A stretch of DNA of 64,000 nt from Euzebyales bacterium (GTDB lineage: Bacteria; Actinomycetota; Nitriliruptoria; Euzebyales; JAHELV01). Position numbers and translations under genes: made by a program. Positions within the stretch are counted from its first letter, which is position 1. Each line of letters starts with the position of its first letter. Under the pieces are notes generated by a model. The model was given only the letters and a program-made list of their open reading frames with translations. It was not told the origin of the DNA and made no database searches. The stretch covers positions 5,840 through 69,839 of the forward strand of contig DATHVN010000163.1 in the NCBI GenBank assembly GCA_035461305.1, written 5' to 3'. Positions 1 to 44,850 of the stretch are shown piece after piece.

Positions 1-557
1 TCGTCGTCGGCTCGGGGATGAAGTGGTTCGGCGGCCGGCTCCTGGGAAGCGTCAGCACAGGCCTGCTGCACACGGCGCGGACGTCGGTGCTCGTCGTGCA
101 CACCGCGCCGTCCGGGGTCCCCGGACCGGTGGTCGTCGGCGTCGACGGGTCCGACCACGCGGCCAGGGCGCTCGACGTCGCGACGGCGTTCCTCGACCCG
201 GAGCGCTGCGCCGTCACGGTGGTGTCCGCGGCAAAGCTGATGGCGCCCGCGCTCATGCCGCCCTACACGGGCTATGCCACGGTCGCGCCGTCACCCGAGA
301 TCGAGGCCGAGGTGCTCGCACCGTCACGGGAGCACGCGGACCGGGCGGCCGCGCTGCTGCGCGGGCGCGGCTTCGCCGCGGAGACGGCAGTGATGCTCGG
401 CCACCCCGTGAAGCGGTTGCTCGCCGAGGTCGACGACGTCGGTGCGGCGCTGGTCGTCGTCGGGTCGCGTGGCCTCGACGCGCTCGACCGCGCGGCGGTC
501 GGCTCGGTCAGCGACCAGGTCGTGCGGTACGCCCCGGCGACGCTCGTCGGGCGGTAG
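1..557 (+). CDS. universal stress protein (UspA family), N-terminus outside window
   Basis: The frame of ORF 18..557 stays open to the window edge; VVGSGMKWFGGRLLGSVS is the end of a first USP domain. The second domain (VVVGVDGS...VVVGSRGLDALDRAAVGSVSDQVV) carries the USP G-x2-G-x9-GS nucleotide-binding signature. Confidence 0.85.
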   Translation, partial: VVGSGMKWFGGRLLGSVSTGLLHTARTSVLVVHTAPSGVPGPVVVGVDGSDHAARALDVATAFLDPERCAVTVVSAAKLMAPALMPPYTGYATVAPSPEIEAEVLAPSREHADRAAALLRGRGFAAETAVMLGHPVKRLLAEVDDVGAALVVVGSRGLDALDRAAVGSVSDQVVRYAPATLVGR

Positions 558-567
558 GCGTCCACGC

Positions 568-1470
568 CTACCGGTGGTGGGGCACGGCGACCATCGGGCC
601 GGCGGCGTGATGCGCGCACTGGTGGCTGACCGAGCCGGGCCCGAGCTCTGCGAAGCCGCGGCGTCCCCGAGTTCCGACGACCAGCAGGTGCTCGGCGGTC
701 GCGTAGCGTTGCAGCGCGGCCACGGGCGCTCCGTCGTCGATGACGCGGTCCATGCGCGCGTCGCCGCCGACGGGCTCGGCCCGGTGGAGCAGCGCGTCGA
801 TCTCGTCGCGCGCGGCGGCGCGGGCCTCGGCGAGCCGTGCCGCGACAAGCTCCACCGGCAGGCCGAGCACACGCAGCGTCGCGGGATCGGGCAGGTCGAG
901 CCCGTGCACGGCGAGCATACCCACGCCGCGGCGGCACGCCTCGTCGACCGCCCAGCGCAGGGCGGTCTCCGACTCCGGCGATGCGTCGACACCGACCACG
1001 ACGGGTCGCCGTCCGTCCCGCTCCTCCCCGGTCGACGCCGGCTCGGACGTCGTCGAGCGGATCAGCGCGACCGGCACGGCCGCATGGGTCAGCACGCGAT
1101 GGCTCGTCGAGCCCAGCAGCAGCTCGCTGAACCCGCCGAGCCCACGGGTGCCGACGACGATCAGCTGGCTGTGCCGGCCCGCGTCGAGGAGGGCGTCGGC
1201 GGCGTGGGACGCGCGGATCACGACAGTGTCGTGGTCCGGCAGCCGCTCGAGCAGCGCACGGTGCCGCGCGACGACGTCGTGCACCAGCCGCCGCGCGAGC
1301 TCCTCGGCGGCGAACGTCGACGCGGACGTGACGCCGTCGTCGACGTACCCGTGCACCAGGGTGAGCGTCACGTTGCGCAGCTGTGCCTCGCGCACGGCCC
1401 AGCGCAGCGCGCGCTCCGAGTGCGCGGATCCGTCGATGCCCACGACGATCGGGGTCGTGACGTCCTGCAT
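568..1470 (-). CDS. tandem-domain universal stress protein
   Basis: Two USP domains are present (IVVGIDGS...VVGTRGLGGFSELLLGSTSHRVL and VVVGVDAS...VVGTRGRRGFAELGPGSVSHQC). Start placed at ATG 1470 (MQDVTTPIVVGIDGS); the extension to 1587 is Arg-rich and not protein-like. Confidence 0.9.
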   Translation of the reverse strand: MQDVTTPIVVGIDGSAHSERALRWAVREAQLRNVTLTLVHGYVDDGVTSASTFAAEELARRLVHDVVARHRALLERLPDHDTVVIRASHAADALLDAGRHSQLIVVGTRGLGGFSELLLGSTSHRVLTHAAVPVALIRSTTSEPASTGEERDGRRPVVVGVDASPESETALRWAVDEACRRGVGMLAVHGLDLPDPATLRVLGLPVELVAARLAEARAAARDEIDALLHRAEPVGGDARMDRVIDDGAPVAALQRYATAEHLLVVGTRGRRGFAELGPGSVSHQCAHHAAGPMVAVPHHR

Positions 1471-1691
1471 GGCGCTCCCGTCTCGAGCGTCGACGGTGAC
1501 GAGGCGCACGCTACGGCGGTCACGGACGTGTGCGCGGGTCGACGGCCCCGCCGCCCACCGACGATGGTCCCGGTCCGCCGGGGACACGGGCCGAAGGACT
1601 CATCGGTTGCGGGCCGTTGGCAGGGTCGCGCTGCGCCGGCCGGGACTACGGTCACCCTCGGGGACCTGATCGGTGTCGAGGAGTGTGCATC

Positions 1692-2837
1692 ATGAAGCAC
1701 TGGGTCATCGCATACCGCCACGTCCCAGGCGCCCCCGCCGCCCTGCGCCGGCGGCTGGTCACCGATGTGGCCGACATGCTGCGCACCGCGATGGACGGCG
1801 ATGACGGACAGGTCGAGCCCGACGGATCGTTGCTCCTGCAGCTGCCCGCCCACGTAGCCGGCGTCGACATGCACAAGCAGGTCAGGGTGCGGACCGGCGT
1901 CGCGTCGGACCATGGAGCCCGCACGTGCATCCCGCTGCAGTGGGAGGCCGAGCCGGGCCGGCACGCCTTCCCCGTGTTCACGGGCACGATCGAGCTCGAG
2001 CCGATGTCGTCGCGGATGGCCCAGCTGACCGTCGTCGGTGCGGTCACGCCGCCGCTCGGGCCGGTCGGCGGCCTCGCGGAAGCCACCGTCCTCGGAGCGC
2101 TCGCCGAGCGCACCACCCAGGACCTGGCCGACCGCCTCGCGGAAGCGCTGGTCGAGGGTCGGGAGGAGCCGGCGGCCAAAGCGGCGACCGGCGGGCCAGC
2201 GGCACAGCTGACGGTCGCCGACATCATGACCGTCAATCCGCTCGTCCTGCACGTCGACACGCCGGTGCGCACGGCCGCGCTGCTGCTGTTCTACTTCGAC
2301 GTGGCAGGCGCGCCCGTCCGCACCGACGACGGCGGCCTGGTCGGGGTGCTCAGCGAGTCGGACCTGCTCGCCGTGCAGGCCACGCCGAGGCTGGGGCTCG
2401 GCGGGCGCGCGGAGGACAGCCGCGTCCGGCACCGCGCCCGCACCGTCGGGGAGGCCTGCAGCCGTCCCGCGCACGTCGTCGCGCCCGACGCGACGGTCTC
2501 CGAGGCGGCAGCGATGCTGTGGGACGCCGACATCGGCCGTCTGATCGTCGTGTCCGGGGCGGAGGTCGTCGGCGTCGTGTCCCGCCACGACGTGCTGCGT
2601 GCGCTGCTGCGCGACGACGCCGAGACCCAGGCCGCCCTCGACGAGCTGCTGCGCGCACGTGACGACGACGTGATCGTCCAGGTCGAGTGGGGCGTCGCCA
2701 CGCTCATGGGCGTGGTGACCTACCACAGCACCGCTCGCCGGCTGGCCCAGATGGTGCGGGAGGTCGACGGCGTCGTCGACGTCGACTCCCAGGTCGACTG
2801 GAAGATCGACGACCTGGTCCCGCCCGTCCTGCCCTGA
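1692..2837 (+). CDS. CBS-pair domain protein with C-terminal BON domain and uncharacterised N-terminal domain
   Basis: Start MKHWVIAY at 1692 is preceded by GAGGAG. Two CBS motifs are present (VADIMTVNPLVLHVDTP...VGVLSESDLL and ACSRPAHVVAPDATVSEAA...VGVVSRHDVL). The BON-like tail reads VQVEWGVATLMGVVTYHSTARRLAQMVREVDGVVDVDSQV. Confidence 0.85.
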   Translation: MKHWVIAYRHVPGAPAALRRRLVTDVADMLRTAMDGDDGQVEPDGSLLLQLPAHVAGVDMHKQVRVRTGVASDHGARTCIPLQWEAEPGRHAFPVFTGTIELEPMSSRMAQLTVVGAVTPPLGPVGGLAEATVLGALAERTTQDLADRLAEALVEGREEPAAKAATGGPAAQLTVADIMTVNPLVLHVDTPVRTAALLLFYFDVAGAPVRTDDGGLVGVLSESDLLAVQATPRLGLGGRAEDSRVRHRARTVGEACSRPAHVVAPDATVSEAAAMLWDADIGRLIVVSGAEVVGVVSRHDVLRALLRDDAETQAALDELLRARDDDVIVQVEWGVATLMGVVTYHSTARRLAQMVREVDGVVDVDSQVDWKIDDLVPPVLP

Positions 2838-2869: not shown

Positions 2870-5434
2870 TCAACTGCGCTGCCACCGCTTGTCCAGCGCG
2901 TCGACGGCGACCACCACCGGCGCGGCGAGCAGCGCGACCGTCCACCCGGTTGCGTCGGGTGGTGCGTGGCCGAGCGCGTCGGCCACGACCGGCACGAACA
3001 GGAACACGGCGGTGATCGCCAGCTCGATCACGACCGCCACGAGCAGCAGCCGGTTGCCGCCCCAGTCGAGCGCGCCGACCCAGCGGGTATCGCTGCGGCA
3101 GGCGAAGGCGTTCGCGGTCTGGCCGATGACCACCGCGGCGAACGTCGCGCCGGACGCGGCGAGCTGCGTGGCGCCCGCGGGGAACGCCATGCCCGGCCGC
3201 CAGCCCGCGGCGACCATGGTGGCGACGAAGGCGCACATGCCCATCAACGCCTCGGACGGGCCGAGCACGCCGAAGCCGCGGCGGGCGACCCTCGCGTCGA
3301 GCAGCCGCCCGCTCGCCGGCGCCGACCGCAGCGTGTTCCGCGTGGGTGGCTCCGCCCCGAGGGCCACGGCCGACAGCGTGTCGGTCCCGATGTCGAGCGC
3401 GAGCACCTGCAGGACACCGAGCGCCAGCGGGAACCGTCCACCAGACAGTGCCCACACGACGAACGGCGTCAGCTCCGCGACGTTGTCGGACAGGTGGTAG
3501 GCCAGGAACCGCCGGATGTTGGCGAACGTCGCCCGGCCGTACTCGATGGCGGCGACGATCGTCGCAAAGTCGTCGTCGAGCAGCACGAGGTCGGCGGCCT
3601 CGCGGGCCACGTCGGTGCCCGACCGGCCCATCGCCACGCCAATGTCGGCCGCGTGCAGCGCCGGACCATCGTTGACGCCGTCGCCGGTCATGGCGACCAC
3701 GTGGTCCCGCCGCTGGAGCGCCGCGGCGATGTGCAGCTTGTCCTCGGGCGCCACCCGGGCGACGACGACCCCGTCGCGATCGACCAGTGCGCCGATGTGC
3801 TCGAGGTCGGAGGGCAGGTCGTCCGATGTCAGCACCGGCGCGTCGGCGTCCGCGAGGCCGACTTCGCGCGCGATCGCCAGCGCTGTGGCGGGGTGGTCGC
3901 CCGTGACCATCGCCACCTTCACGCCCGCCTTTCGGCACGCAGCGACGGCGGCAGCGGCTGCCGGCCTCGGCGGGTCCTCGAGGCCGACCAGGCCCAGCAG
4001 CTCGAGGTGGCGTTCGGCCTCGTCGGCGGTGGCGGCGCGGTCGTCCTCCCAGCGCCGTCGGGCGATCGCCAGGACGCGCAGGCCGCGTGTGGTGAAGCGG
4101 GCGAGCGCGGCGTCCGCCGCGCTGGTCTCGCCAGCGCAGCGCGGCAGCACCGCGTCGGGCGCGCCCTTGACGTACAGCGTCCCGTCGACGACCACCGACA
4201 TCCGGCGACGTCGCGCATCGAAGGGGAAGCGTCGGGTCGGCGGTGAGATCGTCCCGGCGCCGTCGCCGGAGACCCGCCGCGCGAGGGCGTCGAGTGCCGC
4301 CTCCATCGGATCGCCCTGCGCGATCCAGCGGTCGGCGTCACGCACGACCCGGCCCGACGAGCAGCGGACCCCCGCCAGGGCCAGCGCACGCACGGCCGTC
4401 ATGGCGGCGTCAGAGTCGGTGTCGACGGTGCCGGTCGGCTCGTAGCCGGCCCCGCTGACGCGCGCCGCCCCGGCCGCCGTCCATGCCTCCACCACCTGCA
4501 TCTCGTTGCGGGTCAGCGTGCCGGTCTTGTCGGTGCACACGAACGTCGTCGACCCCAGGGTCTCGACGGCGTCGAGGCGGCGGACCAGCGCGTTGCGTCG
4601 TGCCATGCGCTGGGCGCCGATCGCGAGCGACAGCGTCACCGTCGGCAGCAGCCCCTCCGGCACGAGCGCGACGGTCACCCCGATCGCAAACACGACGGCC
4701 TCTGTCGCAGCCGTGCCGACCAGCATTGACACGAGGAAGAACGCGACGCCGACGCCGACCGCGATGGTCGCGATGGTCCGCACCACGCGGTGCAGCTCGC
4801 GCGTCAGGGGGCTGGGCGGGCGGGGCCCGGTCTGGGTGAGCGTGGCGATCTCCGCAAGCCGGGTGTCGCCGCCCGTGGCGGTCACCACCGCCTCGGCTTC
4901 GCCCTCCGTCACGAACGTCCCTGCGAACAGCGGATCTCCGGCGGAGACGTGTGTGGGGACGCTCTCTCCTGTGAGGGTCGACGTGTCGACCGACAGCGCA
5001 TGTGCCGAGGTCGTGGCCAGGTCCGCCGAGATCCGGTCGCCGGCTTCGAGGACGACCACGTCGTCCGGGACGAGCTCGGCGGCATCGATCTGCCGTCGCC
5101 TGCCGCCGCGGATGACGGTGACCTGCCGGGGCAGCAGCTCCCGCAGCCGCTCGGCCGCGCGGTCCGCCCGGTGCTCCTCGACGAACGCGAACACGGCGTT
5201 GACGACCACGACGATCACGATTGCCACCCCGAGCTGTGGCAGGCCGGCCACGAACGCGAACGCCGCGGCGATCCACAGCATCAGGGCGAAGAAGTGGATC
5301 AGCTGGTCGACCAGCCGCCGCCAGGCCGGCGTCGCCGGTGCCCGCGGCAGGACGTTGGGTCCGTGGTCCGCCAGAAGCGCGCCGGCCTCGGCCTCGGTCA
5401 GGCCTGACGGCGGGGACATGTCGACGGCGGGCAT
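2870..5434 (-). CDS. P2-type cation-transporting P-type ATPase (CtpF/Ca2+-ATPase-like)
   Basis: Motifs TGES, PEGLLPT, CTDKTGTLT and TGDGVNDGPAL are present. Start placed at MPAVDMSPPSGLTEAEA (5434; alternative 5419). The 381-codon upstream extension of track ORF 2870..6577 is antisense to the hydrogenase gene and was rejected. Confidence 0.9.
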   Translation of the reverse strand: MPAVDMSPPSGLTEAEAGALLADHGPNVLPRAPATPAWRRLVDQLIHFFALMLWIAAAFAFVAGLPQLGVAIVIVVVVNAVFAFVEEHRADRAAERLRELLPRQVTVIRGGRRRQIDAAELVPDDVVVLEAGDRISADLATTSAHALSVDTSTLTGESVPTHVSAGDPLFAGTFVTEGEAEAVVTATGGDTRLAEIATLTQTGPRPPSPLTRELHRVVRTIATIAVGVGVAFFLVSMLVGTAATEAVVFAIGVTVALVPEGLLPTVTLSLAIGAQRMARRNALVRRLDAVETLGSTTFVCTDKTGTLTRNEMQVVEAWTAAGAARVSGAGYEPTGTVDTDSDAAMTAVRALALAGVRCSSGRVVRDADRWIAQGDPMEAALDALARRVSGDGAGTISPPTRRFPFDARRRRMSVVVDGTLYVKGAPDAVLPRCAGETSAADAALARFTTRGLRVLAIARRRWEDDRAATADEAERHLELLGLVGLEDPPRPAAAAAVAACRKAGVKVAMVTGDHPATALAIAREVGLADADAPVLTSDDLPSDLEHIGALVDRDGVVVARVAPEDKLHIAAALQRRDHVVAMTGDGVNDGPALHAADIGVAMGRSGTDVAREAADLVLLDDDFATIVAAIEYGRATFANIRRFLAYHLSDNVAELTPFVVWALSGGRFPLALGVLQVLALDIGTDTLSAVALGAEPPTRNTLRSAPASGRLLDARVARRGFGVLGPSEALMGMCAFVATMVAAGWRPGMAFPAGATQLAASGATFAAVVIGQTANAFACRSDTRWVGALDWGGNRLLLVAVVIELAITAVFLFVPVVADALGHAPPDATGWTVALLAAPVVVAVDALDKRWQRS

Positions 5435-5596
5435 GCGACCACTGTGTAGCGTCGAGAGGCGACCGCCGCCAGTGTGGGCGCGGACCCGTCGGAGGCGAGG
5501 GCCGAAAGCCCCGCAGGTTGCGGGCCGCCAGCCCGTGGCCATGACGTCGTCGGCGCGGCACCGTGTGGCGACCGCTCTCGGGGAAGGCGACGTGCG

Positions 5597-6730
5597 ATGG
5601 TCGACGTGATGGATGCGGCAGCACTCGCGGACCTGCTGGACGGGCTCGGACGGCAGGGCTACACGGTCGTCGGCCCCACCGTCGGGGACGGCGCGATCGT
5701 CTACGACGAGCTCGACTCCGTCGACGACCTGCCACGTGGCTGGACCGACGAACAGGCACCCGGGCACTACCGGTTGGCGCAGCGTGACGATGACGCGCTG
5801 TTCGGCTACGCGGTCGGTCCCCACTCGTGGAAGCGGTACCTGCTGCCGTCGACCCACACGGTGTGGTCGGCCGAGCGGACCGACGACGGCGGTCTGCGGG
5901 TCCTCGACGAGCCGACGCCGGCGCCGCGCTACGCCTTCGTGGGCGTGCGCTCGTGCGAGCTGGCGGCCATCGCCGTCCAGGATCGCGTGTTCATCCAGGG
6001 CCCCGCGGTCGACACCGTGTATGCACGACGGCGTGACGAGGTGCTGTTGATCGCGGTGAACTGCGGGGATCCCGCGGGCACCTGCTTCTGCGTGTCGATG
6101 GGCACCGGACCGCGTGCGACCGGTGGCTTCGACCTGGCGCTGACGGAGGTGCTCGACGACGACGGCCACCGGTTCGTGGTCGAGGTCGGCACCGACGCCG
6201 GCAGGGCCGCGCTCGACGCCGCCGCGCACCGGCCGGCCACTGCCGACGACGCCGCAGCGGCGCACGCGGTGACCGACCGTGCGGCGCAGCGCATGGGACG
6301 CGTCATGGACACGACCGCCATCAAGGAGCTGCTGTACGGCAACCTCGAGCACCCACGATGGGACGACGTCGCCAGCCGCTGCCTGGCGTGTGGCAACTGC
6401 ACGATGGCCTGCCCCACGTGCTTCTGCACGAGCGTGACCGACGTGACCGACCTTTCGGGCGAGCACGTCGAACGGCATCGTGACTGGGACTCGTGCTTCA
6501 CGCTGGACTTCACGTGGACCGCCGGCACGTCGGTCCGCTCCACGACCAGATCGCGCTACCGGCAGTGGATGACGCACAAGCTCGCGACCTGGATCGACCA
6601 GTTCGGCACATCGGGCTGCGTCGGCTGTGGGCGCTGCATCACGTGGTGCCCGGTCGGCATCGACATCACCGAGGAGGTCGCGGCGATCCGGGCCGACGAC
6701 CCCATCGAGGACGCGGAGGACCTGCCGTGA
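5597..6730 (+). CDS. hydrogenase-associated 4Fe-4S subunit (sulfhydrogenase beta / AsrA-like)
   Basis: Start MVDVMDAA at 5597 follows GGGAAGG. Cys clusters [16 protein letters not shown] and [12 protein letters not shown] are present. It is the first gene of a translationally coupled hydrogenase operon. Confidence 0.85.
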
Positions 6731-7194
6731 ACACCGCCCACATGCTCGCTCTGCACCCGTTCGTCGCCGGGCTGAGCAACGAGCAGCTCGTCGCGCTGTC
6801 GGGATGTGCGACGCCGGTGCGGTTCGATCCGGGGGACGTGATCTTCCGCGAAGGCGACCCCGCGGACGCGTGCTACCTGGTGCGGGCGGGCCACGTCGCG
6901 CTGCAGCTGCACGCCCCGGACGGACCGCTGGTCATCGAGACGCTCGTCGGTGAGCACGTGCTCGGCTGGTCGTGGCTGGTGGCACCGCACCGCTGGCGCT
7001 TCGACGCGGTGGCGGTCGACGAGGTCGACACGATCCACCTCGACGCGGCGTGCGTCCGCGGGCTCATGCGCGACGACCCGCAGCTGGGCTCCGCCGTGGC
7101 GCAGCAGTTGCTGGCCGTGGTCGGCGACCGTCTGGAGCACACGCGGGTCAGGCTGCTCGACGTCTACGGACACCACCATGCGCGCAGCATCTGA
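6727..7194 (+). CDS. cyclic-nucleotide-binding-domain protein (stand-alone CNB fold, divergent phosphate-binding cassette)
   Basis: The GTG start overlaps the upstream stop (GTGA at 6727-6730). CNB-like strands include [27 protein letters not shown]...[10 protein letters not shown]. There is no DNA-binding HTH after the domain. Confidence 0.75.
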
Positions 7195-8044
7195 CCAGCT
7201 GCTCGCACCGGCGCTCACGCCGCAGCTCGCGCGGCTCGAGCGCACCGTCCGCGAGACCGCCGACACCGTCACCCTCCACGTGCGTGCGCTCGACGCGGAG
7301 TGGTCGCCGTTCGCGCCCGGCCAGTTCGACATGCTCACCGCGTTCGGCGTCGGCGAGGTGCCGATCTCGGTCAGCGGCGACCCCAACGACCGGGTCATGC
7401 GCCAGTACACGATCCGCGCGGTGGGTGCGGTGACGCGGGCCCTGACCGCTCTCGGCCCGGGTGCGCACCTGGGCGTGCGCGGTCCCTACGGCACGCCGTG
7501 GCCGGTCGACGTCGCGGTGAACACCGACGTGCTCGTCGTCGCCGGCGGCCTGGGGTTGGCTCCGCTGCGTCCCGCGATCCACCACCTGCTCGCGCACCGT
7601 GACCGCTACCGGCGCGTCACCATCCTGTACGGCGCGCGGACGCCCGACGACATGCTGTTCGTCGACGAGGTGGTCCAGTGGCGCGGTCGCTTCGACGTCG
7701 ACGTGGCGGTGACGGTCGACGCCCCGAGCCCGCCACCCACGGCCACCGCGCCCTGGCGGGGGCACGTCGGGCTGGTGACCACGCTGATCCGTCCGGCGAT
7801 GGGCGATCCGGACCGCACGACGGCCCTGGTCTGCGGTCCCGAGATCATGATGCGCTTCACCGTCCGCGCGCTCGCGGACCACGGCATCGTCAGTGACAGG
7901 ATCCACGTGTCGCTGGAGCGCTCGATGGACTGCGGCGTCGGCCTGTGTGGTCACTGCCAGCTCGGCCCGTTCTTCGTCTGCGTCGACGGTCCCGTCATGT
8001 CCCAGCGCCGCGTCGGCCCGTGGCTGGTGGTGAGGGAGCTGTGA
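7178..8044 (+). CDS. FAD/NAD(P)-binding oxidoreductase with C-terminal 2Fe-2S (sulfhydrogenase gamma / AsrB-like)
   Basis: Motifs RQYTIRA (FAD), [13 protein letters not shown] (NAD(P)) and the C-terminal [12 protein letters not shown] cluster are present. It overlaps the upstream gene by 17 nt. Confidence 0.9.
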
Positions 8045-8832
8045 GCACCGTGACCGATCGTCCGACGCTGGCCGTGTGGAAGTTCGCGTCATGTGACGGG
8101 TGCCAGCTGCAGGTCCTCAGCCTCGCCGACCGCCTGCTCACCCTGACCGAGCGCGTTGACGTCGCCATGTTCCTGGAGGCCACGCGGAGCCAGGTCGCCG
8201 GCCCTTACGACGTGTCGCTGGTCGAGGGCTCGATCACCACGCCGGACGACGCGCGGCGCATCAGGGAGATCCGCGCGCAGTCCCGGTACCTGGTCACCAT
8301 CGGCGCGTGCGCGACGTCCGGCGGCATCCAGGCGTTGCGCAACCTCGTCGACGTCAGCGACTGGACGTCCCTCGTCTACGCCAACCCCGAGTACGTCGAC
8401 ACGTTGGCGACGTCGACGGGCATCGCCGATCACGTCGCCGTCGACTTCGAGCTGCGGGGGTGCCCGATCTCGATCACCCAGCTCGCGGAGGTCGTCGCGG
8501 CCCTGCTCGACGGGCGGCGGCCCGCCGTCGCCGCGTCAAGCGTGTGCGGGGAGTGCAAGCGCCGTGGCAACGTCTGCGTGATGGTCGCGCACGGCACCCC
8601 GTGCCTGGGACCCATCACCCAGGCCGGGTGCGGCGCGCTCTGCCCGACCTACGACCGCGGCTGCTACGGCTGCTTCGGCCCAGCTGAGACTGCGAACACC
8701 GCATCCCTGATGGACTGGTGGGGCGACGTGTTGGGCGTCGGCGCCGGCGAGCGGGTCCGGATGCTGCGGACGTTCAACGCCAACGCGCCGGAGTTTCGCG
8801 AGGCTGCCGCGGCGCAGGAGGATGCCACATGA
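8041..8832 (+). CDS. [NiFe]-hydrogenase small (delta) subunit, group 3 type
   Basis: GTGA start/stop overlap at 8041. Motifs [16 protein letters not shown] and GCP are present, plus the distal Cys cluster [11 protein letters not shown]...[27 protein letters not shown]. Confidence 0.9.
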
Positions 8833-10133: not shown

Positions 10134-10588
10134 CCGCGCGGGTGTTCGGCCTCGGCCACCCCGACCGTGGTGACGACGCCGTCGGGCTGCTGGTCGCCGA
10201 CGACGTCCGGCGGCGGGCGCCCCTGGGGGTGGAGGTCCGTCGGCTCGAGGGGTCGCCACTGGAGCTGCTGACGTCGTGGGACGACGCCGACGACGTGATC
10301 GTCGTCGACGCCGTGCGGGCCCCGACAGCACCGGGGCTGGTCCGGCGCTTCGACGTCCTCGCGGGTCAATTGCCGGTGATGGGGTCGACGGGCGGCACGC
10401 ACGACGCGTCGCTGATCGACGCCATCGAGCTGGCGCGTGCGCTCGGACGGCTGCCGGCAGGCCTCGTGGTCTACGGCGTGTACGGCGCCAGCTTCGGCGT
10501 CGGTGACGCGATGACCCCGGCCGTGCGGGACGCCGCCCAGGCCCTGGGCGAGCGCATCGCGGGTGAGGTCGTGCCGCGCCGCGGGTGA
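10130..10588 (+). CDS. hydrogenase maturation endopeptidase (HycI/HoxW family)
   Basis: GTGA overlap at 10130. The N-terminus [15 protein letters not shown] and the later GGTHDASL are typical of the family. Confidence 0.85.
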
Positions 10589-14994: not shown

Positions 14995-15060
14995 GTGCGG
15001 TGTGGGCGACGTCGAGGATCCGACCCGGCACATGGGTTCGGGCGCGCCACAACGCCTACC

Positions 15061-33372: not shown

Positions 33373-33579
33373 CTCCACCTCGCGGATGGAAGGGCGTTGC
33401 GCCCGCCCGTGCCGGGACCATCGCATCTGGTCGGTCCGAGCGGGCGGTACGGCCGTGCGCACAAGGCCCTTGGACCCTGGGCGCTGCGGAGCCTCCAGGG
33501 CGATCCTGAAGGATCTCGTGAGGGAGTGGGCACATGGCCTCCACGACGTCCACCGGCTCGTCCCGTCTGGGGATGGGGC

Positions 33580-35914: not shown

Positions 35915-36042
35915 GGGTGTGGCCTCCTCCGTCAGGGCCTCGGGCCGTTGTTCTCATGCGCGCAGGGCCCACCGGCCTGCCCGACGTCGTGCGCGCGATG
36001 TCCAATGGGGTCACGAGCCGTCCCGGCGGATGAGGTGGCGCG

Positions 36043-36578
36043 ATGACACGAGCACTGGTGGTGTTCGAGTCGATGTTCGGGAACACGGCGACCATTGCGC
36101 GGGCGGTCGCTGACGGCGTGGGCGGAGGCGTTGACGTCGACCTGGTCGAGGTCGGCGACGCGCCGACCGCGATCGCTGACGACGTCAGCCTGCTGGTGCT
36201 CGGGGGACCGACGCACGCGTTCGGGATGAGCCGGCCCGGTACGCGGCGGTCTGCGGCGCAGCAGGCGGAGCATGCCCTGGTCTCGCGGGGGATCGGGCTG
36301 CGTGAGTGGCTCGCTGCGGTCGACGTCGGGGACGCCAGGCCGTCCGCGGCGACGTTCGACACGATGCTCGCCGGCCCGCGGTGGATCCGGTGGATGCCCT
36401 CGGCCGGACGCGGCGCCCATCGGGGCCTGCGCAAGCTCGGGCTGCACATGGTGGCGCCGCCGGAGACCTTCTACGTAACGGACACGACGGGCCACTGGTC
36501 GACGATGACGAGGAGCGCGCACGCCAGTGGGGCGAGCGGCTCGTGGCCGAGGCCCACCGGCCCAGTGCCGCGACCTGA
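36043..36578 (+). pseudogene. flavodoxin-like protein, interrupted by one frameshift (or assembly indel)
   Basis: MTRALVVFESMFGNTATIARAVADG...LVLGGPTHAFGM runs in frame 1 up to ETFYVTDTTG. The family C-terminus PLVDDDEERARQWGERLVAEA continues in the frame of ORF 36306..36578. The shift is near 36490 (GGCC-ACTGG). The uncorrected read-through to 36780 is Arg/Ser-rich. Confidence 0.65.
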
Positions 36579-36629
36579 TCGCCGGTCGGTTGTCGTCGTT
36601 CATCCGATGTCGTCGAGGAGGAGAGGACC

Positions 36630-36839
36630 ATGCAGTACCAGATCGCCGACGAGCACGCGGAGGTCCTGCGTGAGGTGCTCGACGCGGCGTTGCGTGAGCT
36701 GCGGTACGAGATCTCGGACACGGACAACTCACGGTACAAGCAGGAACTGCGCGAACGTGAGGAGGCGCTGCGTGCGTTGATGGCGCCGCTCGGAGGGCCA
36801 CTGCCGGACGCGCCGCGGCGGTCGGTCACCCGGCGCTGA
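36630..36839 (+). CDS. small helical hypothetical protein
   Basis: A strong RBS (GAGGAGGAGAGGACC) sits immediately before the ATG. The 69-aa sequence (MQYQIADEHAEVLREVLDAALRELRYEISDTDNSRYKQELREREEALRAL) is protein-like and not low-complexity. Confidence 0.7.
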   Translation: MQYQIADEHAEVLREVLDAALRELRYEISDTDNSRYKQELREREEALRALMAPLGGPLPDAPRRSVTRR

Positions 36840-36844
36840 CGATC

Positions 36845-37398
36845 GTGCGGCGTCGCCTTCGTGGTCGGCTGCCTGAGCACCACGGCGATGCTGCGGCGCT
36901 CGAACCCGTGATCGAGATCCCCCGGGGCTGTCGCAACAAGTACGAGTTCGACCCGGACCACGGTGTGATCCGGCTGGACCGGACGCTCTTCACCGCGACC
37001 CAGTTCCCCGCCGACTACGGGTTCATCCGGCACACCTCGTCGGAGGACGGCGATCCGCTCGACACGATGGCGCTGCTGCAGGAGCCGACCTTCCCCGGCT
37101 GCTGGATCGTCGTCCGGGCGGTCGGCGGATTCTGGATGCACGACGAAGCGGGGACCGACCCGAAGCTGCTGTGCGTCCCGTCGCGCGATCCGTGGTGGGC
37201 GCACGTCCGGGGGACGTCGACGACGCCCCGCGGTTCTCCTCGCCGAGATCCGGCACTTCCTTCACGGTCTACAAGCAGCTCGAGCCCGGCAAGTCCACCC
37301 GGTGCTACGGGCGGGAGGGCGTCGAGGTTGCCGACGCCGTCGTGCGCGCGGCCCAGCGCCGGGCGCGTCGCGCGGCAACTACTGGCACGAAGCCATAG
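36845..37398 (+). pseudogene. ppa: inorganic pyrophosphatase (family I) with three indels
   Basis: The family core is intact: IEIPRGCRNKYEFD...LDRTLFTATQFPADYGFI...EDGDPLD...DEAGTDPKLLCVPSRDP. The frame is then lost at the G5 run 37209-37213. The conserved LLAEIRHF lies in a third frame between a -1/+1 pair (about 37236 and 37260). FTVYKQLEPGK then resumes. Confidence 0.7.
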
Positions 37399-37409
37399 GG
37401 GTGATCGCA

Positions 37410-37868
37410 ATGACCTGGACCGGTCGGCGTGAACGTGCGCGTGCGAGTTCAGGGGCACGACGGACGGGCTACGTGATCACGATCGTGATCAACGCGATGG
37501 TGCTGTACGTCGTCGACAACGTCCTGGAGTGGGACCTCCTAACGTTCCTCACCGACGACTTCGCCAGCGTGCTGCCCCTGCTGGAGCTGTCGCTGCTGGC
37601 GACGATCGCGGTCAACGTCGTGTACCTGGCGTACGACGAGCCGACGTTTCGAACGGTCATGCAGCTCGGGCTGTCCGGCATCTCGCTGGCCGTGGTGCTC
37701 CGCCTGTACGACGTCTTCCCGTTCGACTTCTCGGACTACGACCCGGCGTGGGGCACGGTGGCGCGTGCCGTTCTGATCCTCGCGATCGTCGGGACCGGCA
37801 TCGGGCTCGTCGTCGAGGCCGGCCGGCTGGTGCAGGCGCTCGCACGAGGTCCCGCTGCGCGGCAGTGA
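37410..37868 (+). CDS. four-TM membrane protein of unknown function
   Basis: Start at MTWTGRRERA. Hydrophobic segments include YVITIVINAMVLYVV, LPLLELSLLATIAVNVVYLAY, LGLSGISLAVVLRLY and ARAVLILAIVGTGIGLVV. Confidence 0.65.
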   Translation: MTWTGRRERARASSGARRTGYVITIVINAMVLYVVDNVLEWDLLTFLTDDFASVLPLLELSLLATIAVNVVYLAYDEPTFRTVMQLGLSGISLAVVLRLYDVFPFDFSDYDPAWGTVARAVLILAIVGTGIGLVVEAGRLVQALARGPAARQ

Positions 37869-39120: not shown

Positions 39121-40824
39121 TCAGGGCAGAGGCGCCCGCCACTGGATGCGCGTGCCCGACGGGTCGCTGTCGATCTGCATCGAGCCGCCGAACCGTTCGG
39201 CGCGTGCGGCGACGTTGGTCAACCCACTGCGTCGACCACCGGCGGGTATGCCGCGGCCGTCGTCGGACACCTCCAGGTGCACGCTCTCCTCGACGATCTG
39301 CAGGCGGAGGGTCACGTGCGACGCCTGCGCGTGGCGGCCGATGTTGCTCACAAGCTCGCGGGCCGCGGCGAGCAGGTCGACCACGATCTCGTCGGGGACA
39401 TCGATGTCGACCGCCGGGTCGATCTCGCACACCGGGGCGAAGCCCAGCAACTGCTCGCCCGTCCGACAGATCTCCGCGAGCTGCCGGCTGACCGTCGACG
39501 CCCCGCTGCGCCGGGCGTGCAGCCCGAAGATGGACGACCGCAGATCGGTGATCGCCGCGTCGATCTCGTCGACGGCGCCTCGGATGCGATCGGCGGCCAC
39601 CGGGTCGTCGGTGCGCGCCGTGACGCTGTCGAGCTCGAGGCCGGCCGCGAACAGGCGCTGGATCACGAGGTCGTGCAGGTCGTGGCTGATCCGATCGCGA
39701 TCGGTGAAGATCGCCGCCCGCCGCCGCTGCGCCTGCGCGTGTTCGTAGTCGAGCGCGAGCGCGGCCTGCGCGGCGAGATCCTCGGCCGCCCGCAGGTCGT
39801 CGGCGCTGAACTGACCGTTGCCCTTCTGACGGGTGATCGTGATCACGCCCAGTGGCTCGTCCCGTACGCGCATGGGCACGACCATCGCCGGACCCCCTGC
39901 CCTCGTGCTCGGCAGTGGATCTCCCGCGCGCTCGAGCGACGAGAGGTCGTCGACGGCGAGGGCATGGCCCTCCGCGTACGCCTGTGTCATGATCGAGTCA
40001 TCGCGCGAGAGCCGCAGCCCGACCAGTTCGTCCGCGTCGAGCCCGTCGGAGGCGACCACGACGAGGTCGTCGCCGACGGCCATCGCCAGATGACAGGTCA
40101 CAGCCTCGGCCAGCTCCCGGAAGCGCGCGACGACCATCTGCTGCACCTGCGCCTCGTCGGACCCCCGGAGCAGCGCTCCTGTGAGGTCGCGTGTCGCCTC
40201 CAGCCAGCGCTGACGGCGTAGTGCCACGCCGTGCAGCCGGGCGTTGGCGATCACCACGCCGGCCGCCGCGGCCAGCGTCTTCACGAGCTCGAGGTCGTCG
40301 TCGGTGAACCCGTGGCCGCCTCGCCGGTTCGTCAGGTACAGGTTGCCGTAGATCTCGTCCCGGACCGCGATCGGCGCCCCGAGGAAGGAGTGCATCGGCG
40401 GGTGGTGCTCGGGGAAGCCGACCGACGCCGGGTGCGTGGAGAGGTCGTCGAGCCGCAGCTCCCTGGGCTCGGTGATCAGCAGCCCAAGGATCCCGTGCCC
40501 TTCGGGGAGGTGGCCGATCTGTTCGACCGTGTCGTCGGGCATGCCGGTGTGCACGAACTCGCGGAGTCGGCCGTCCTCGCCGATCACACCCAGGGCCGCA
40601 TACTCGGCGTCGACCATGTCGGCGGCCACCTCGACGATGCGGTCGAGCACGCTCGCGAGGGACAGCTCCGCCGAGGCGACCCTCACGATGGCCTCGATCA
40701 GGCGCCACAGCCCGTCACGGACCCCGACGATCTCCTGGGTCTGGCGTAGGAGCTCACCGAGCAGGTCGTCGAGGGTCAGCCGCGCGTGCTTGGGCGCTCG
40801 CAGGGGGTCCGTGCGCCGCTCCAC
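39121..40824 (-). CDS. DevS/DosT-like heme-binding GAF-GAF sensor histidine kinase (HisKA_3 + HATPase_c)
   Basis: The GAF-A string FPEHHPPMHSFLGAPIAVRDEIYGNLYLTNRRGGHGFTDDDLELVKTLAAAAGVVIANARL closely parallels the DevS/DosT heme pocket. A second GAF domain follows, then the H-box DRDRISHDLHDLVIQRLFAAG and an ATPase domain (VSNIGRHAQA...DDGRGIP). Confidence 0.9.
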   Translation of the reverse strand: MERRTDPLRAPKHARLTLDDLLGELLRQTQEIVGVRDGLWRLIEAIVRVASAELSLASVLDRIVEVAADMVDAEYAALGVIGEDGRLREFVHTGMPDDTVEQIGHLPEGHGILGLLITEPRELRLDDLSTHPASVGFPEHHPPMHSFLGAPIAVRDEIYGNLYLTNRRGGHGFTDDDLELVKTLAAAAGVVIANARLHGVALRRQRWLEATRDLTGALLRGSDEAQVQQMVVARFRELAEAVTCHLAMAVGDDLVVVASDGLDADELVGLRLSRDDSIMTQAYAEGHALAVDDLSSLERAGDPLPSTRAGGPAMVVPMRVRDEPLGVITITRQKGNGQFSADDLRAAEDLAAQAALALDYEHAQAQRRRAAIFTDRDRISHDLHDLVIQRLFAAGLELDSVTARTDDPVAADRIRGAVDEIDAAITDLRSSIFGLHARRSGASTVSRQLAEICRTGEQLLGFAPVCEIDPAVDIDVPDEIVVDLLAAARELVSNIGRHAQASHVTLRLQIVEESVHLEVSDDGRGIPAGGRRSGLTNVAARAERFGGSMQIDSDPSGTRIQWRAPLP

Positions 40825-41540: not shown

Positions 41541-42443
41541 ATGAGGATCCTTGTGGGCGTGGACGGCTCCGTACGGTCGGAGCGCGCGCTGCGCTGGGCC
41601 CTGCGCGAGGCCAGGGCACGAAACGCCGACGTGTCCGTCGTCCACGCCTTCGACGTCCCCAGCCTCCGTGGTCCCCTGGATCGGGAGGTGCCGCTCGACG
41701 ACGAGCACGCGAGGGCTCGCGAGCACGTCGACCGCATGGTCGCGCGGTCGGGCCGGCGCGCCGCGGCCGTGCCGGTCGACGTCGAGGTGGTTGCGACGAC
41801 GGACCACCGCACCCCGGCCAACGTGCTGCTAGGGCGCAGCCGACACGCCGACCTCGTCGTCGTCGGCGCCAGGGGCCTGGGCGGGTTCGCAGGGCTGCTG
41901 CTGGGCAGCGTCAGCCAGCAGGTCGCCGCCCACGCCAACGTCCCGGTCGCGGTCATCCCCGGCCCCGCGGCGCCTGGCGGCGCCAGCATCGCGCTCCCGC
42001 GATCGGTCGTGGTCGGCGTCGACGGCTCGTCGCACGCGGCCGCGGCGTTGCGGTGGGCCGTCGACCATGCGGCGGTGCACGTCCGCCCGGTCACGGCGGT
42101 GTACGTGCATCCGCCCGTGCCCGCGACGTTGACGGCCGGCATCGCCAGTGGCGTCGAGCACGCCGCGGTCGACAGGCTCTGGACCCACGGCCACGCCGAG
42201 GCGCAGCAGGCGCTCGAGGACCTGGTGGCCAAGGCCACGGCGGGGGTCGAGGTGACCGTCGACGCCGTCGCGATCTCCGGCAGCGCGCCCGCCCACCGCC
42301 TGCTCGAGTACGCCGCCGGGCACGACGGCCTACTGGTCGTGGGCAGCCGAGGCCGGGGAGGCTTCCCCGGCCTGCTGCTCGGCTCGGTCAGCATGCAGTG
42401 CCTGCACCACGGCGCGCTGCCCGTGGTGGTCGTCCACGGCTGA
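41541..42443 (+). CDS. tandem-domain universal stress protein
   Basis: Two USP domains are present: MRILVGVDGS...VVVGARGLGGFAGLLLGSVSQQV and VVVGVDGSS...LVVGSRGRGGFPGLLLGSVSMQC. Confidence 0.92.
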   Translation: MRILVGVDGSVRSERALRWALREARARNADVSVVHAFDVPSLRGPLDREVPLDDEHARAREHVDRMVARSGRRAAAVPVDVEVVATTDHRTPANVLLGRSRHADLVVVGARGLGGFAGLLLGSVSQQVAAHANVPVAVIPGPAAPGGASIALPRSVVVGVDGSSHAAAALRWAVDHAAVHVRPVTAVYVHPPVPATLTAGIASGVEHAAVDRLWTHGHAEAQQALEDLVAKATAGVEVTVDAVAISGSAPAHRLLEYAAGHDGLLVVGSRGRGGFPGLLLGSVSMQCLHHGALPVVVVHG

Positions 42444-42473: not shown

Positions 42474-44231
42474 TCAGAGGTCGTTGAGCCTGCCGAGGAT
42501 CGGCCACAGCGCGGCGGGGGTGGTGGCGTAGTCGTAGTGGGAGCCACCGATGGCGCCGCCGTCGATCACCGCATCGACGAAGCGGGACACGCGGGCGGTG
42601 GTCACCGGCGTGTTCTCGGTGCCGGGATCATCGACGCCGCCCTCCACCGTGACGGGCCGCCCGCTGAGCGCGCGTGCGCGCACGGTCTGGCTTCGGACCC
42701 ACGTGTAGACCTGGTCGGCCGTGAACGCGTCGCGCTTCGACCACAGCGCCATCGGGACGACCACGTCGCTGCGCGCGCCGACAGCCGCCCAGGGGAAGCC
42801 CACCCAGTTGCTACCTGGATCGGTCGCGTACGGCGACGGCACGATCGCGGCGGTCATGGTGTCCGTCGCGGCGCGCACCCGTGCGAGGTGGTCGACGAGC
42901 CGCGTGTTGAACTGGGCGCGGGTGACCTCGTCGAGGCGCTCGATGTCGACACCGACACCGTCGAAGCGCTGTCCACCAGGACTGGTGAAGGTCGCGATCG
43001 CAACGGTGCGTCGGACGTCGCGGTCCATGTTGCCGTAGGCCGGCAGGTACCAGCCGACCACGCGGATGCCGGCCGCGTGGGCGGCGTCGAGCCAGGCCCC
43101 GGCCTCCGCGGCGTTGTGGAAGTCGTTGGTGCTGGTGAACCGCGCGGTCGCCAGGAACAGTGTCCGTACGTCGCGCGTGGCCATGTGGGCGACGGCGGTC
43201 TCCGGGTCGAGGCTCGCGTAGTCGAACACGTCGACCCAGGTCGACAGACGGCGGAACGGCAGCAGGGCATCGACGCTGGACCAGCGACCCCATGCGGCGG
43301 TCGGAGCGGACCGGGTCGCGGTGGCGTAGCGGCCGCCGGTCCGCTTGGCGGCTACGCGGACCGTGTCGCCGGCCGCGGTGGCCGACGGGCCCGACGCGGG
43401 CGTGTCACCCAGCGACGTCCAGCCGCTCCAGGTGCCGTTCACCTGCCGGCGGGTCCACATCGCGGTGCCGGTGCGGCGGGCGAACACATCCAGCCTGCCG
43501 GGGACGGGCGCGGCGACCGCGGGCTGGGAGATCAACCCACCCGACAGCGTCCGCCACGCCGACCAGCCGGCGCCCTCCCTGAACGACCGGTGCAGCAGTG
43601 CGCTGCCGGCGCCGCGGGCGACGACGTCGATGCGGCCGGGACCCCATGACGTCGCGGCCGGGCTCGAGGTCAGCGCGCCTCCCCGCTTGCCCCAGCCGGA
43701 CCAGCCCTGTCCCGACACATAGGTCCGCTGGCGTAGCGCACCGTTGGTCGCACGGATGAACACATCGAGCCGGCCGGGTTCCCACGACGCGACCGCGGGT
43801 GCCGACGCGAGCGTACCGCCGAGCGACTCCCATCCGGACCAGGAGCCGTTGCGGTACCAGCCGTGCACCAGCGTGTTGTCCGTACCGCGCGCGAACACGT
43901 CGATGCGGCCCGGCGCCCACGACACGGCGGCGGGCTGGGACGCCAGCGTGCCGCCAAGGCCGAGCTGGCGGGTCCAGGATCCGCCGGCCGGGCGGTAGCG
44001 GTGTGCCAGGCGTCCCGACGTGGTCCGCCAGAACAGGTCGACGCGGCCCGGCTCCAGCCCGGTCACGGCCGGTGACGTGACCTCCGTCGACGGCACCGGC
44101 GCCACGGCGGCTGTGGCCGGCACCGGAGCGGTGACCACCGCGCACGCGACGGCCAGTGTCGCGACGGTGGCGAACATACGCCATCGACCGGCGCGGCGTT
44201 GCGATGGGTGGTCGGCTCGGCTGTCTGTCAT
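42474..44231 (-). CDS. secreted protein: lectin-like beta-propeller repeats fused to a glycoside-hydrolase-like TIM-barrel domain
   Basis: A signal peptide ([23 protein letters not shown]) is followed by 5-6 repeats of about 46 aa with the pattern SxPAxxSWxPGRxDVFxRG...W.GW..LGG. The C-terminal domain (VDVFDY...IRVVGWYLP...GVGVDIE) resembles uncharacterised GH-like families. Alternative start at 44177. Confidence 0.8.
43272..44075 (-). repeat. intragenic tandem repeats encoding the beta-propeller blades (about 138-141 nt period)
   Basis: The repeated peptide units [69 protein letters not shown] and [23 protein letters not shown] are visible in the translation. Confidence 0.7.
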
Positions 44232-44256
44232 GACGTCCCCCGGGCTCCGACGCCGA

Positions 44257-44541
44257 TCAGGCGTCGAGCTTCGTGACGGGCGTTCCCGTCACACCCTCGA
44301 TGTCCTCCGCGGCCGCGTGCAGGAGCTGGTGCGCGAGGTCCGACAGCGCTCGGGCGGCCGCAAGCTCGTCGCCGATCTCGGGCACGTCCCTGTCAGCGGG
44401 GTGCTTGCGCGCGTCGCCACGGCCTCGCAGGTCGGTGGCGTCCTGCGTGTGCAGTCGCGCCTCGGCGTGGGTTCGGACGCCGGCCGCGTCGGAAAGCTCG
44501 GTGAGGTAGATGTCGACGCTCCATTGCTTGGCGATCTGCAT
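44257..44541 (-). CDS. DUF1876 (Rv2632c/Rv1738-like) small protein
   Basis: Start [13 protein letters not shown] follows GGGAGG. The conserved core is THAEARL...[34 protein letters not shown]. Confidence 0.85.
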
Positions 44542-44850
44542 TATGCCTCCCGCGGTGGACGGTGCCGTGCAGCTGAAGCATTGCGTCGAGCGATGGGCGG
44601 TGCGAGAGACCAACGTCCCGGTTGCGGCAGGCCAACGGGCGTCCCCCGATCGGGTGACGCGGACGGCCAGCGCTGGCGGGCTCGTAGCCCGGTGTCCGAC
44701 CTGTCACCCTCCGTCGTCGCACGTGAGCCGCAACAGCTCGGCCTGACGTTCCGGCGCGTGACGGAAGACCCGTGTGGGAGGGGGCGGAGTGCCCATGCTC
44801 CGCCTGCGTCGGGCACCTACCGTCTGCAGCAACCTGCAGGAGGCGGTCGG

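Follow-up and report, generated by a model that had tools for sequence, protein, structure and literature searches.

Does the DevS/DosT-type sensor histidine kinase encoded in this stretch of DNA stand within a gathered version of the DosR dormancy regulon? The stretch, here called the window, comprises 64,000 nucleotides in full and derives from an uncultured Euzebyales actinobacterium (class Nitriliruptoria) represented by a metagenome-assembled genome (MAG). A first-pass annotation, made from the sequence alone, had described positions 1–44620 as a consolidated hypoxia/redox-survival island around an orphan kinase, built of protein types known from the DosR regulon of Mycobacterium tuberculosis. 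The core of that description is supported by our analysis, namely a heme kinase with no regulator nearby amid DosR-regulon families, and the interpretation as a whole is supported in part. We lean towards the view, which we consider probable rather than firm, that the locus is a hypoxia/redox dormancy neighbourhood organised like the mycobacterial DosR/DevR and the Streptomyces OsdR core regulons.

Raw open reading frame lists proved useless at the G+C content of the window (72%), so genes were called by the G+C content of the third codon position and later corrected against deposited models. The called proteins were scanned with Pfam, NCBIfam and the PDB sequences. The same DNA is present on ENA metagenome contigs that correspond to window positions -5833 to 49801 and 54305 to 64586. 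One of these, L010, extends the readable DNA 5.8 kb to the left of the window edge, giving a contig of about 70 kb in total.

The kinase (39121–40824, minus strand, 567 aa) carries two GAF/GAF_2 matches in Pfam, followed by HisKA_3 (residues 376–437) and HATPase_c (484–566). This layout of GAF-A, GAF-B, HisKA_3 and HATPase_c in about 570 residues, without a transmembrane segment, is that of DevS and DosT. Against the PDB, the first GAF domain matched DosT GAF-A (2VZW) with E=2e-50 and the DevS structures with about 3e-48, and it is approximately 60% identical to DosT GAF-A across 141 residues. The heme-pocket-like string reported in the first-pass annotation does align with the DosT/DevS pocket: the segment fpehHppm...gnlYlt faces fplhHppm...gnlYlt of DosT, with the proximal His (HHPPM) and the distal Tyr (NLYLT) kept. 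Furthermore, the H-box motif is kept among 12 orthologues. GAF-A is therefore predicted from its sequence to bind heme.

A different reading of the same protein would be that it does not sense O2/NO/CO through heme, or that its partner is not of the DosR type, in which case the resemblance of its neighbours to a regulon would be coincidental. The heme ligation is a prediction, the partner regulator is not local, and DevS-like kinases form numerous paralogues in actinomycetes, with at least 588 relatives confirmed among the 600 matched stretches listed. These points leave this reading improbable when set against the close identity to DosT and the retention of both pocket residues. Moreover, dimerisation domains of the HisKA_3 type usually work together with regulators of the NarL family, and the nearest regulator in the cluster of a relative, described below, is DevR-like.

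The gene content around the kinase overlaps with experimentally defined DosR regulons. For M. tuberculosis, we take Rv2623, Rv1738/Rv2632c, the Rv2302/Rv0569 family, Rv2625c, CtpF, Rv0571c and Rv2006 to be the regulon counterparts of the window proteins. The protein types listed in the first-pass annotation were all found at or near the positions it gave, with Pfam, NCBIfam or PDB support. Universal stress protein (USP) genes are present in four places, as had been described. The first (1–557, plus strand; Pfam Usp E=1.8e-22) is cut at its 5' end by the window edge and reaches 288 aa in L010. The second (568–1470, minus strand, 300 aa; E=4.5e-44) has two domains, starts with ATG at 1470 behind a GGGAG ribosome-binding site, and corresponds to an exact product on record. 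Divergent from the kinase lies another two-domain protein of 300 aa (41541–42443, plus strand; E=4.3e-50), whose best PDB match is Rv2623 (3CIS/2JAX, E=3e-25). The gene at 29719–30477 (minus strand) encodes a single weak domain (E=8.7e-10); hence four USP genes stand, while the tandem arrangement ascribed to all of them is demonstrable for three.

Between these genes lie the other dormancy-type proteins. A protein of 381 aa with a CBS pair (E=3e-20) is encoded at 1692–2837 (plus strand); it has an additional C-terminal BON domain (E=2e-7) and does not resemble Rv2626c of M. tuberculosis, to which it showed no match among PDB structures. The P2-type cation ATPase, of the class of CtpF (2870–5434, minus strand), carries Cation_ATPase_N/C and E1-E2_ATPase domains, and NCBIfam type IIA/IIC models fit it best, all under their cut-offs. 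Additionally, a fusion of phosphoribosyltransferase (PRTase) and dienelactone hydrolase (DLH) of 464 aa (10910–12304, minus strand; Pribosyltran E=1.2e-16, DLH/Abhydrolase_11) and an M50 metalloprotease with a CBS pair, of the Rv2625c-type architecture (28170–29309, minus strand; Peptidase_M50 E=3.3e-18, CBS E=2.8e-16), were confirmed by Pfam. The Rv2632c/Rv1738-like small protein (44257–44541, minus strand) matched Pfam Rv2632c-like with E=6.3e-31 and the structures of Rv1738 and Rv2632c with E=3.1e-16 and E=3.1e-13, respectively.

The glycoside hydrolase family 65 (GH65) protein, a hydrolase or phosphorylase at 30474–33038 (minus strand; Glyco_hydro_65m E=1.1e-101), overlaps the downstream USP gene. 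Its comparison with OtsB1/Rv2006 in the first-pass annotation stands for the GH65 domain and fails for the OtsB1-type phosphatase: Pfam gives GH65 domains only and no phosphatase (HAD) domain, and the first ~190 residues are without assignment. The protein thus differs from Rv2006, which carries phosphatase domains. A DUF1918 protein of the Rv2302/Rv0569 family (33116–33325, minus strand; Pfam E=5.9e-25, PDB 2A7Y of Rv2302 E=1.4e-12), which had not been listed before, can be added to the set; Rv0569, the paralogue of Rv2302, belongs to the DosR regulon. Altogether the window shares with M. tuberculosis the Rv2623-like USPs, Rv1738/Rv2632c, DUF1918, M50-CBS, P2-ATPase, PRTase-DLH and the GH65 domain, as well as the sensor type, and DosT is likewise encoded apart from dosR. 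The nitroreductase of the Acg type, tgs1, narK2 and hspX are absent from the window; HSP20 and Pyridox_ox_2 proteins occur in the clusters of relatives.

Comparison across relatives, which the first-pass annotation had proposed as a check, provided the second line of evidence. A single-protein scan of genome contigs returned no relatives, a metagenome scan gave two short loci, and an alignment-based genome scan gave almost only Streptomyces. Orthologous kinases (56–88% identity) were found in seven related metagenomic or MAG loci, where mostly the same families recur in shuffled order. Locus L009 (81%) reads PRTase, DUF4389, an operon of a GlpA-like protein, an Fe-S protein and two cytochromes, Rv2632c-like and PLL propeller, followed by USP, kinase, DUF1918, GH65 and a probable USP cut by the contig end. 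In L008 (60%), the order is Pyridox_ox_2, CNNM, USP, PRTase-DLH, USP, kinase, Pyridox_ox_2, HSP20, GlpA-like operon and cytochrome bd. The Nitriliruptorales MAG L005 (63%) shows two CBS proteins, two USPs, the kinase and another CBS protein, with Pyridox_ox_2 farther off.

Locus L014 (61%) contains a cyclic-nucleotide-binding (cNMP-binding) protein, P2-ATPase, HSP20, CBS/BON, Pyridox_ox_2, AMIN-like, kinase and Acyl_transf_3. L013 (56%) contains USP, GH65, USP, a family 4 glycosyltransferase (GT4), DUF1918, HSP20, a PAS kinase, a Response_reg+GerE regulator, DUF6544, kinase and a GDE-type glycosidase. In L015/L016 (88%), PLL propeller, USP and kinase stand together. L003 (56%) is the exception, with the kinase after a pyruvate phosphate dikinase (PPDK) gene among housekeeping genes. 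The USP/kinase pairing and its PLL propeller neighbour are thus kept in L009 and L015, the GH65-USP pair appears again in L009 and L013, and the PRTase-DLH fusion lies near the kinase also in L008. Likewise, cNMP-binding proteins lie near the kinase also in L005 and L014.

This comparison also redraws the extent of the set. AMIN-like (21190–21990, minus strand), DUF6544 (22569–23441, plus), GDE_N_bis/MGH1-like glycosidase (23465–25555, plus), GT4 (25670–26758, plus) and Acyl_transf_3 (26878–28020, minus), all assigned by Pfam, belong to families that flank the orthologous kinases in L013 and L014. Together with the secreted PLL/DUF346 beta-propeller protein at 42474–44177 (minus strand; Pfam DUF346, with Beta-prop_PLL in L001), we include them in the conserved set because they recur around orthologous kinases. 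A DUF4389 membrane protein (55599–57035, plus) and a second PRTase (57238–57894, minus), also assigned by Pfam, have counterparts in L009 that lie beside both the GlpA/Sdh-like operon and the kinase cluster. The end at 44620 was therefore drawn too early: the set reaches the genes at 52.6–57.9 kb, since relatives carry the GlpA-like operon, DUF4389 and the second PRTase by the kinase. As these families occur a handful of times per genome, we infer that their co-location is far beyond chance.

The regulator that would act with the kinase was sought next to these genes. When approximate probe sequences of DosR, NarL and OmpR were run by tblastn against the six frames of the window, no receiver or LuxR-type domain was found (best E=0.3), and Pfam gave no receiver in any called gene either. 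The same probes gave none in the 5.8 kb to the left of the window, nor around the kinase in four relatives. The observation that no NarL/LuxR-type regulator is encoded in the window was thus confirmed, and the orphan status of the kinase holds for the 70-kb contig.

This status is not special. In a census of 80 actinomycete DevS-like kinase loci, mostly from Streptomyces and used as a census rather than for synteny, a DosR-like regulator lies within 10 kb in only 30–31 and directly adjacent in only 10, while 50 lack one within 10 kb. Orphan DevS-like kinases are common in actinomycetes.

Among the relatives, L013 does encode a suitable protein. Its Response_reg+GerE protein (7841–8545) has DevR (3C3W) as best PDB match, with E=5e-48 compared with 4e-30 for NarL, and its recognition helix, EKTVKNYVSRvLAKL, is nearly identical to that of DevR; the gene lies 1.4 kb from the orthologous kinase. 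It is co-transcribed with the PAS-HisKA kinase (L013 6279–8545) and not with the DevS-like kinase. An identical regulator is recorded on a 49,955-bp contig, the same size as the contig carrying the L008 kinase. In this relative, one regulator and two DevS-like kinases are therefore probably gathered in one cluster of ~50 kb, which suggests that two heme kinases and a third, PAS-type input feed one regulator there.

The third line of evidence concerns the promoters. The pattern was set beforehand as GGGAC-N4-GTCCC, which we take to be the DosR core, and matches with at most one mismatch were counted. This core agrees with the stringent consensus of M. smegmatis, GGGACTTNNGNCCCT (PMC6448022), and with the OsdR sites of Streptomyces coelicolor (PMC5069765). 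Four of the six matches in the window fall in promoters (1642, 19331, 20382 and 44606). In the window and four relatives together, 9 of 18 matches are intergenic, a class that makes up 12.4% of the DNA; shuffles gave 2.5±1.6, and none of 300 reached nine. Pooled over 196 kb, 10 intergenic matches were counted against 3.7±2.2 expected, a value reached in 2 of 200 shuffles. Terminator hairpins could inflate palindrome counts, and for this reason the core was compared with 80 composition-matched control palindromes with permuted half-sites. GGGAC was the most intergenic-biased of the 80 (odds ratio 5.7, Fisher p=1.9e-4), with 10 intergenic and 12 coding matches against a mean of 4.35 and 29.

Several of these candidate sites are placed at promoters of the dormancy-type genes. 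GGGACTACGGTCAC (1642–1655, one mismatch) lies in the divergent USP/CBS-BON promoter, and the orthologous promoter of L005 also carries boxes. On the minus strand, GGGACGTTGGTCTC (44606–44619, one mismatch) lies ~70 nt upstream of the Rv2632c-like gene, at a position kept in the alignment with L009. GGGACTTCGGCCCT (55394–55407, minus strand) precedes the GlpA-like gene by ~68 nt and belongs to a block, CCGGGAC(T/C)TC(G/C)G(C/T)CCT, found ~60–70 nt before the GlpA-like start in the window, in L009 and in the distant L008, where it is kept although the remaining promoter has diverged. The other two promoter matches to the DosR core are a box at 19331, upstream of a small membrane protein gene, and GGGGCGAAGGTCCC at 20382–20395, ~96 nt upstream of the bpa start.

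Weaker candidates complete the picture. The OsdR consensus is AGGGCCGATCGGCCCT (PMC5069765). With one mismatch to a relaxed OsdR-like pattern, GGGMCN4GKCCC, the palindrome GGGCCGAAAGCCCC (5499–5512) was located in the divergent ATPase/hydrogenase promoter, and two boxes (12410–12423 and 12461–12474, weight-matrix scores 13.2 and 11.5, one mismatch each) in the divergent PRTase-DLH/ATPase-hemerythrin promoter. Further candidates lie at 22293 in the AMIN-like/DUF6544 region and, by weight matrix, at 33464–33477 upstream of the DUF1918 gene and at 57984 upstream of the second PRTase. The matrix was built from nine sites and is circular for these training sites; it was used only to nominate candidates. 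At 72% G+C the relaxed pattern is too unspecific, so the argument is not based on it.

Several results weigh against a DosR-type regulon at this locus. The gene for the regulator is absent from the contig, so the signalling partner was not located, and the 120 best-scoring homologues of the L013 regulator included no DosR-like protein labelled as Euzebyales. In L003 the kinase lies amid housekeeping genes. For the boxes, G+C-rich intergenic palindromes can be terminator hairpins, and the core is unenriched in the window as a whole (6 matches against 9.5 expected). The 20-nt M. tuberculosis consensus was matched at no more than 14 of 20 positions in the window, with none of the top matches intergenic, and for the relaxed OsdR-like pattern the enrichment is only slight (38 against 29.9±5.5; reached in 17 of 200 shuffles). 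De novo searches for perfect 5-mer dyads and for recurrent 14-mers, with or without an A/T filter, gave only G+C-rich noise. No strong box precedes the kinase, NfeD, FloA, CorA or GH65 genes. An independent replicate in three further loci (L013–L015) gave 1 intergenic match against 1.0 expected, and because it lacks the enrichment we regard regulon status as supported but not proven. A DosR-type operator at a subset of promoters would thus have real but incomplete support from the sequences.

These points bear on the possibility of a stress-gene neighbourhood without a single master regulator, held together by co-inheritance or served by several local regulators, for example cNMP-binding, Crp-like proteins; the kinase would then control a few adjacent genes, or genes elsewhere. 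The modest box evidence, unreplicated in L013–L015, the many window genes without a box and the L003 arrangement would fit such a neighbourhood, as would the cNMP-binding proteins that recur in the clusters and in 21 of 80 Streptomyces-type loci. We nevertheless consider it rather unlikely. A core chosen a priori was the most promoter-biased among the 80 control palindromes, it persists at orthologous promoters, including one whose flanks have diverged, and the same families shuffled around the kinase in seven loci are a signature of functional linkage.

Under the preferred reading of a DosR-like dormancy neighbourhood, a course of events can be proposed. The kinase would bind heme in its first GAF domain and become active on falling O2 or on binding of NO or CO, as the ligand residues suggest. 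It would then phosphorylate a DosR-type regulator of the NarL family encoded outside the 70-kb contig; such a regulator exists in the cluster of a relative. The regulator would bind GGGAC-N4-GTCCC-like palindromes before several operons, for which part of the evidence is in hand: the better candidates are those of the USP/CBS-BON, Rv2632c-like and GlpA/SdhBCD-like operons, and the weaker ones those of P2-ATPase/hydrogenase, PRTase-DLH/ATPase-hemerythrin, DUF1918 and the second PRTase. In the non-growing cell, the proteins made in response would keep up redox balance and ion homeostasis. Here the group 3b hydrogenase may dispose of reductant as H2 in a fermentative manner, like Hyh of M. smegmatis, alongside the USPs, the ion pumps, a glucoside module of GH65, GT4 and GDE, and a GlpA-like quinone-linked dehydrogenase.

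The hydrogenase operon (5597–10588, plus strand; Pfam, with gene models from L010) had been assigned to group 3b, and this assignment was borne out. The genes encode beta (Fer4_22), a cNMP-binding protein, gamma (NAD_binding_1+DHODB_Fe-S_bind), delta (Oxidored_q6 small subunit), alpha (large subunit) and a HycI-type protease, that is, the four subunits of alpha-beta-gamma-delta type with one extra gene inserted. For the large subunit, the best NCBIfam models are ShyA (E=6.6e-72) and HydA (E=1.5e-67), both sulfhydrogenase alpha and both under their equivalog cut-offs, and the PDB entries 5YXY and 9NEZ (E~5e-63) come ahead of groups 3c and 3d. Nickel-ligand CxxC motifs are present at both termini, and DPCISCATH was seen in the translation. 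The inserted cNMP-binding protein (155 aa, 6727–7194) is encoded between beta and gamma with overlapping stop and start codons.

In M. smegmatis, DosS/T-DosR activates the group 3b hydrogenase Hyh, which releases reductant in the form of H2 (bioRxiv 10.1101/2023.09.11.557286). Unlike the operon of Hyh, that of the window has the cNMP-binding gene between beta and gamma. A single weak OsdR-like palindrome at 5499 suggests DosR-type control of the window hydrogenase as well. Among the proteins most strongly induced in M. smegmatis are Fsq-type flavoproteins (Pyridox_ox_2) and HspX, both of which have counterparts in the clusters of the relatives.

At 52623–55332 (minus strand), Pfam identified an operon for a GlpA-like flavoprotein, an SdhB-like Fe-S subunit and two Sdh_cyt membrane subunits. 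The flavoprotein matched NCBIfam GlpA, of anaerobic glycerol-3-phosphate dehydrogenase, with E=2.7e-130, under the cut-off and over the first 380 of 530 positions only. The operon is kept in three loci (window, L008 15338–18043 and L009 2349–5061). In L008 it is divergent from hsp20 and lies beside cytochrome bd genes.

These operons raise the tentative idea, which we hold with more doubt than conviction, that the DosR-type response of Nitriliruptoria has absorbed modules unknown in mycobacterial or streptomycete regulons, with the heme sensor stably separated from the regulator in most members. The modules in question would be the GlpA/SdhBCD hybrid enzyme, as the clearest case, the cNMP-containing group 3b hydrogenase and the GH65/GT4/GDE glucoside module. 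If this were true, the hybrid would represent a new hypoxia-induced electron entry or exit at the quinone pool, for example as glycerol-3-phosphate:quinone activity or, in reverse, in a fumarate-reductase-like manner.

The gathering of such genes in one region, implicitly offered as new in the first-pass annotation, is already known. In S. coelicolor, OsdK/OsdR (SCO0203/SCO0204) and the core regulon SCO0167–SCO0219 form a consolidated DosR-type cluster, which holds 8 of 11 USP genes and in which binding sites control 20 of the 22 genes SCO0198–SCO0219 (PMC5069765). Palindromic GGG(A/C)C-N4-G(G/T)CCC operators precede most operons there (PMC5069765), and several sites of the window resemble the OsdR consensus AGGGCCGATCGGCCCT. 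Both regions are consolidated, belong to high-G+C actinomycetes and have many USPs near a DevS/DosT-like kinase. The find is accordingly not surprising, since the arrangement was known from Streptomyces.

The two regions differ in other respects. S. coelicolor has the regulator beside the kinase, together with nitrate reductase Nar2 and PPDK, whereas here a regulator is lacking from the whole 70 kb and neither a Nar nor a PPDK family is among the Pfam matches of the window; among the relatives, PPDK stands beside the kinase only in L003. Conversely, the window goes beyond S. coelicolor in the group 3b hydrogenase, GH65/GT4/GDE, Rv2632c-like, M50-CBS, PRTase-DLH and the GlpA/SdhBCD-like operon. 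The survey of 80 kinases, mostly from Streptomyces, found no hydrogenase, GDE, GT4 or GlpA gene at a distance of 10 kb or less. In M. tuberculosis, the regulon genes are dispersed over several groups on the chromosome and include no group 3b hydrogenase.

A literature search returned no published description of such a cluster in Nitriliruptoria. The present locus extends the DosR/DevR-type dormancy system to this poorly studied, mostly metagenomic class of Actinomycetota. Since families of the M. tuberculosis regulon travel with a DevS/DosT-type sensor far outside mycobacteria, it supports the view that the regulon is an ancient actinobacterial toolkit and not an adaptation of pathogens. For several M. 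tuberculosis dormancy proteins without known function, the conserved neighbourhood and the common operator offer points of comparison, and the GlpA/SdhBCD-like operon is flagged as encoding a candidate for a new respiratory complex linked to hypoxia. Existing models of how these regulons operate are unchanged.

The word island in the first-pass annotation invites the question of whether the region was horizontally acquired, recently assembled or moved as a unit. Many accessory stress genes do lie within ~60 kb, and a patch of broken genes at 35.1–37.4 kb could mark a recent rearrangement. The G+C content is uniform, however, at 0.69–0.745 without a compositional break, no tRNA genes were found in the window, and no integrase, transposase or phage families occur among the Pfam matches of its proteins. 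Moreover, related lineages carry the same families in gradually rearranged order and not as a block that is present or absent. A mobile island was rejected on the even composition and the lack of tRNA and mobility genes, and we regard acquisition as a unit as very improbable; the contrast with a dispersed regulon drawn in the first-pass annotation goes beyond what one 70-kb contig supports.

The broken-gene patch itself (35104–37432) includes a carbamate-kinase-like gene whose parts fall in three different frames. At 35469–35470 the window carries two G's that the ENA assembly of this DNA lacks, and both versions are out of frame. Within the patch lie a flavodoxin-like fragment (36043–36777) and an inorganic pyrophosphatase (36845–37429) that spans only 107 of 153 profile positions and is intact (185 aa) in L009. 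The patch represents either real gene decay or a MAG assembly error.

Some of the other genes that had been counted among the set appear to be outside it. A heavy-metal ATPase of the P1B type (12643–14994, plus strand; E1-E2_ATPase, Hemerythrin E=3.3e-15, NCBIfam ATPase-IB E=5.6e-151) ends in a hemerythrin domain, an architecture known for P1B-5 (PMC9388753). The genes for NfeD, flotillin FloA and a CorA-type channel come directly after it, and this stretch (12643–19283) may be a separate metal-transport and membrane-microdomain module outside the hypoxia set. NfeD/flotillin and CorA look like bystanders because no box lies upstream of them and no relative has them near its kinase. Together with the acetoin-type dehydrogenase genes and the sulfide module, they are most likely neighbours and not members. 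The membership of the Bpa proteasome activator (19822–20292, minus strand; Pfam BPA E=8.8e-30) is uncertain: one box lies ~96 nt upstream, but the gene is in no relative's cluster.

Two observations concern further genes of dormancy type. Between the M50-CBS gene and the USP/GH65 operon, a USP C-terminal fragment of 55 aa (...VGSVTHQCLHHATGTVAVVP) is encoded at ~29531–29698 (plus strand), listed as a gene in the ENA models; it is probably the remnant of a fifth USP gene. Adjoining the edge-cut USP gene, a 493-aa AAA_33 (P-loop kinase-like) protein lies at L010 11794–13275, ~0.3–1.8 kb left of the window, and matched no NCBIfam model. The pair of AAA_33 and USP may resemble the Rv2004c–Rv2005c pair of the M. 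tuberculosis DosR regulon.

Among the intergenic regions, an Rfam scan of the long gaps gave no RNA family. The 690-bp floA-corA gap, in which no gene, Rfam family or Pfam match was found, contains a 32-bp unit in 2.1 copies (80% match) at 17968–18034. Finally, a perfect 24-bp tandem duplication (GGCGGCCACCCGGGGAGACCGGGT x2) is present at 60524–60571, with an inverted repeat within each copy. It lies ~110 nt upstream of the genes for a sulfide:quinone-reductase-like flavoprotein, DsrC/TusE and DsrE, and may be an operator for a sulfide-responsive regulator.

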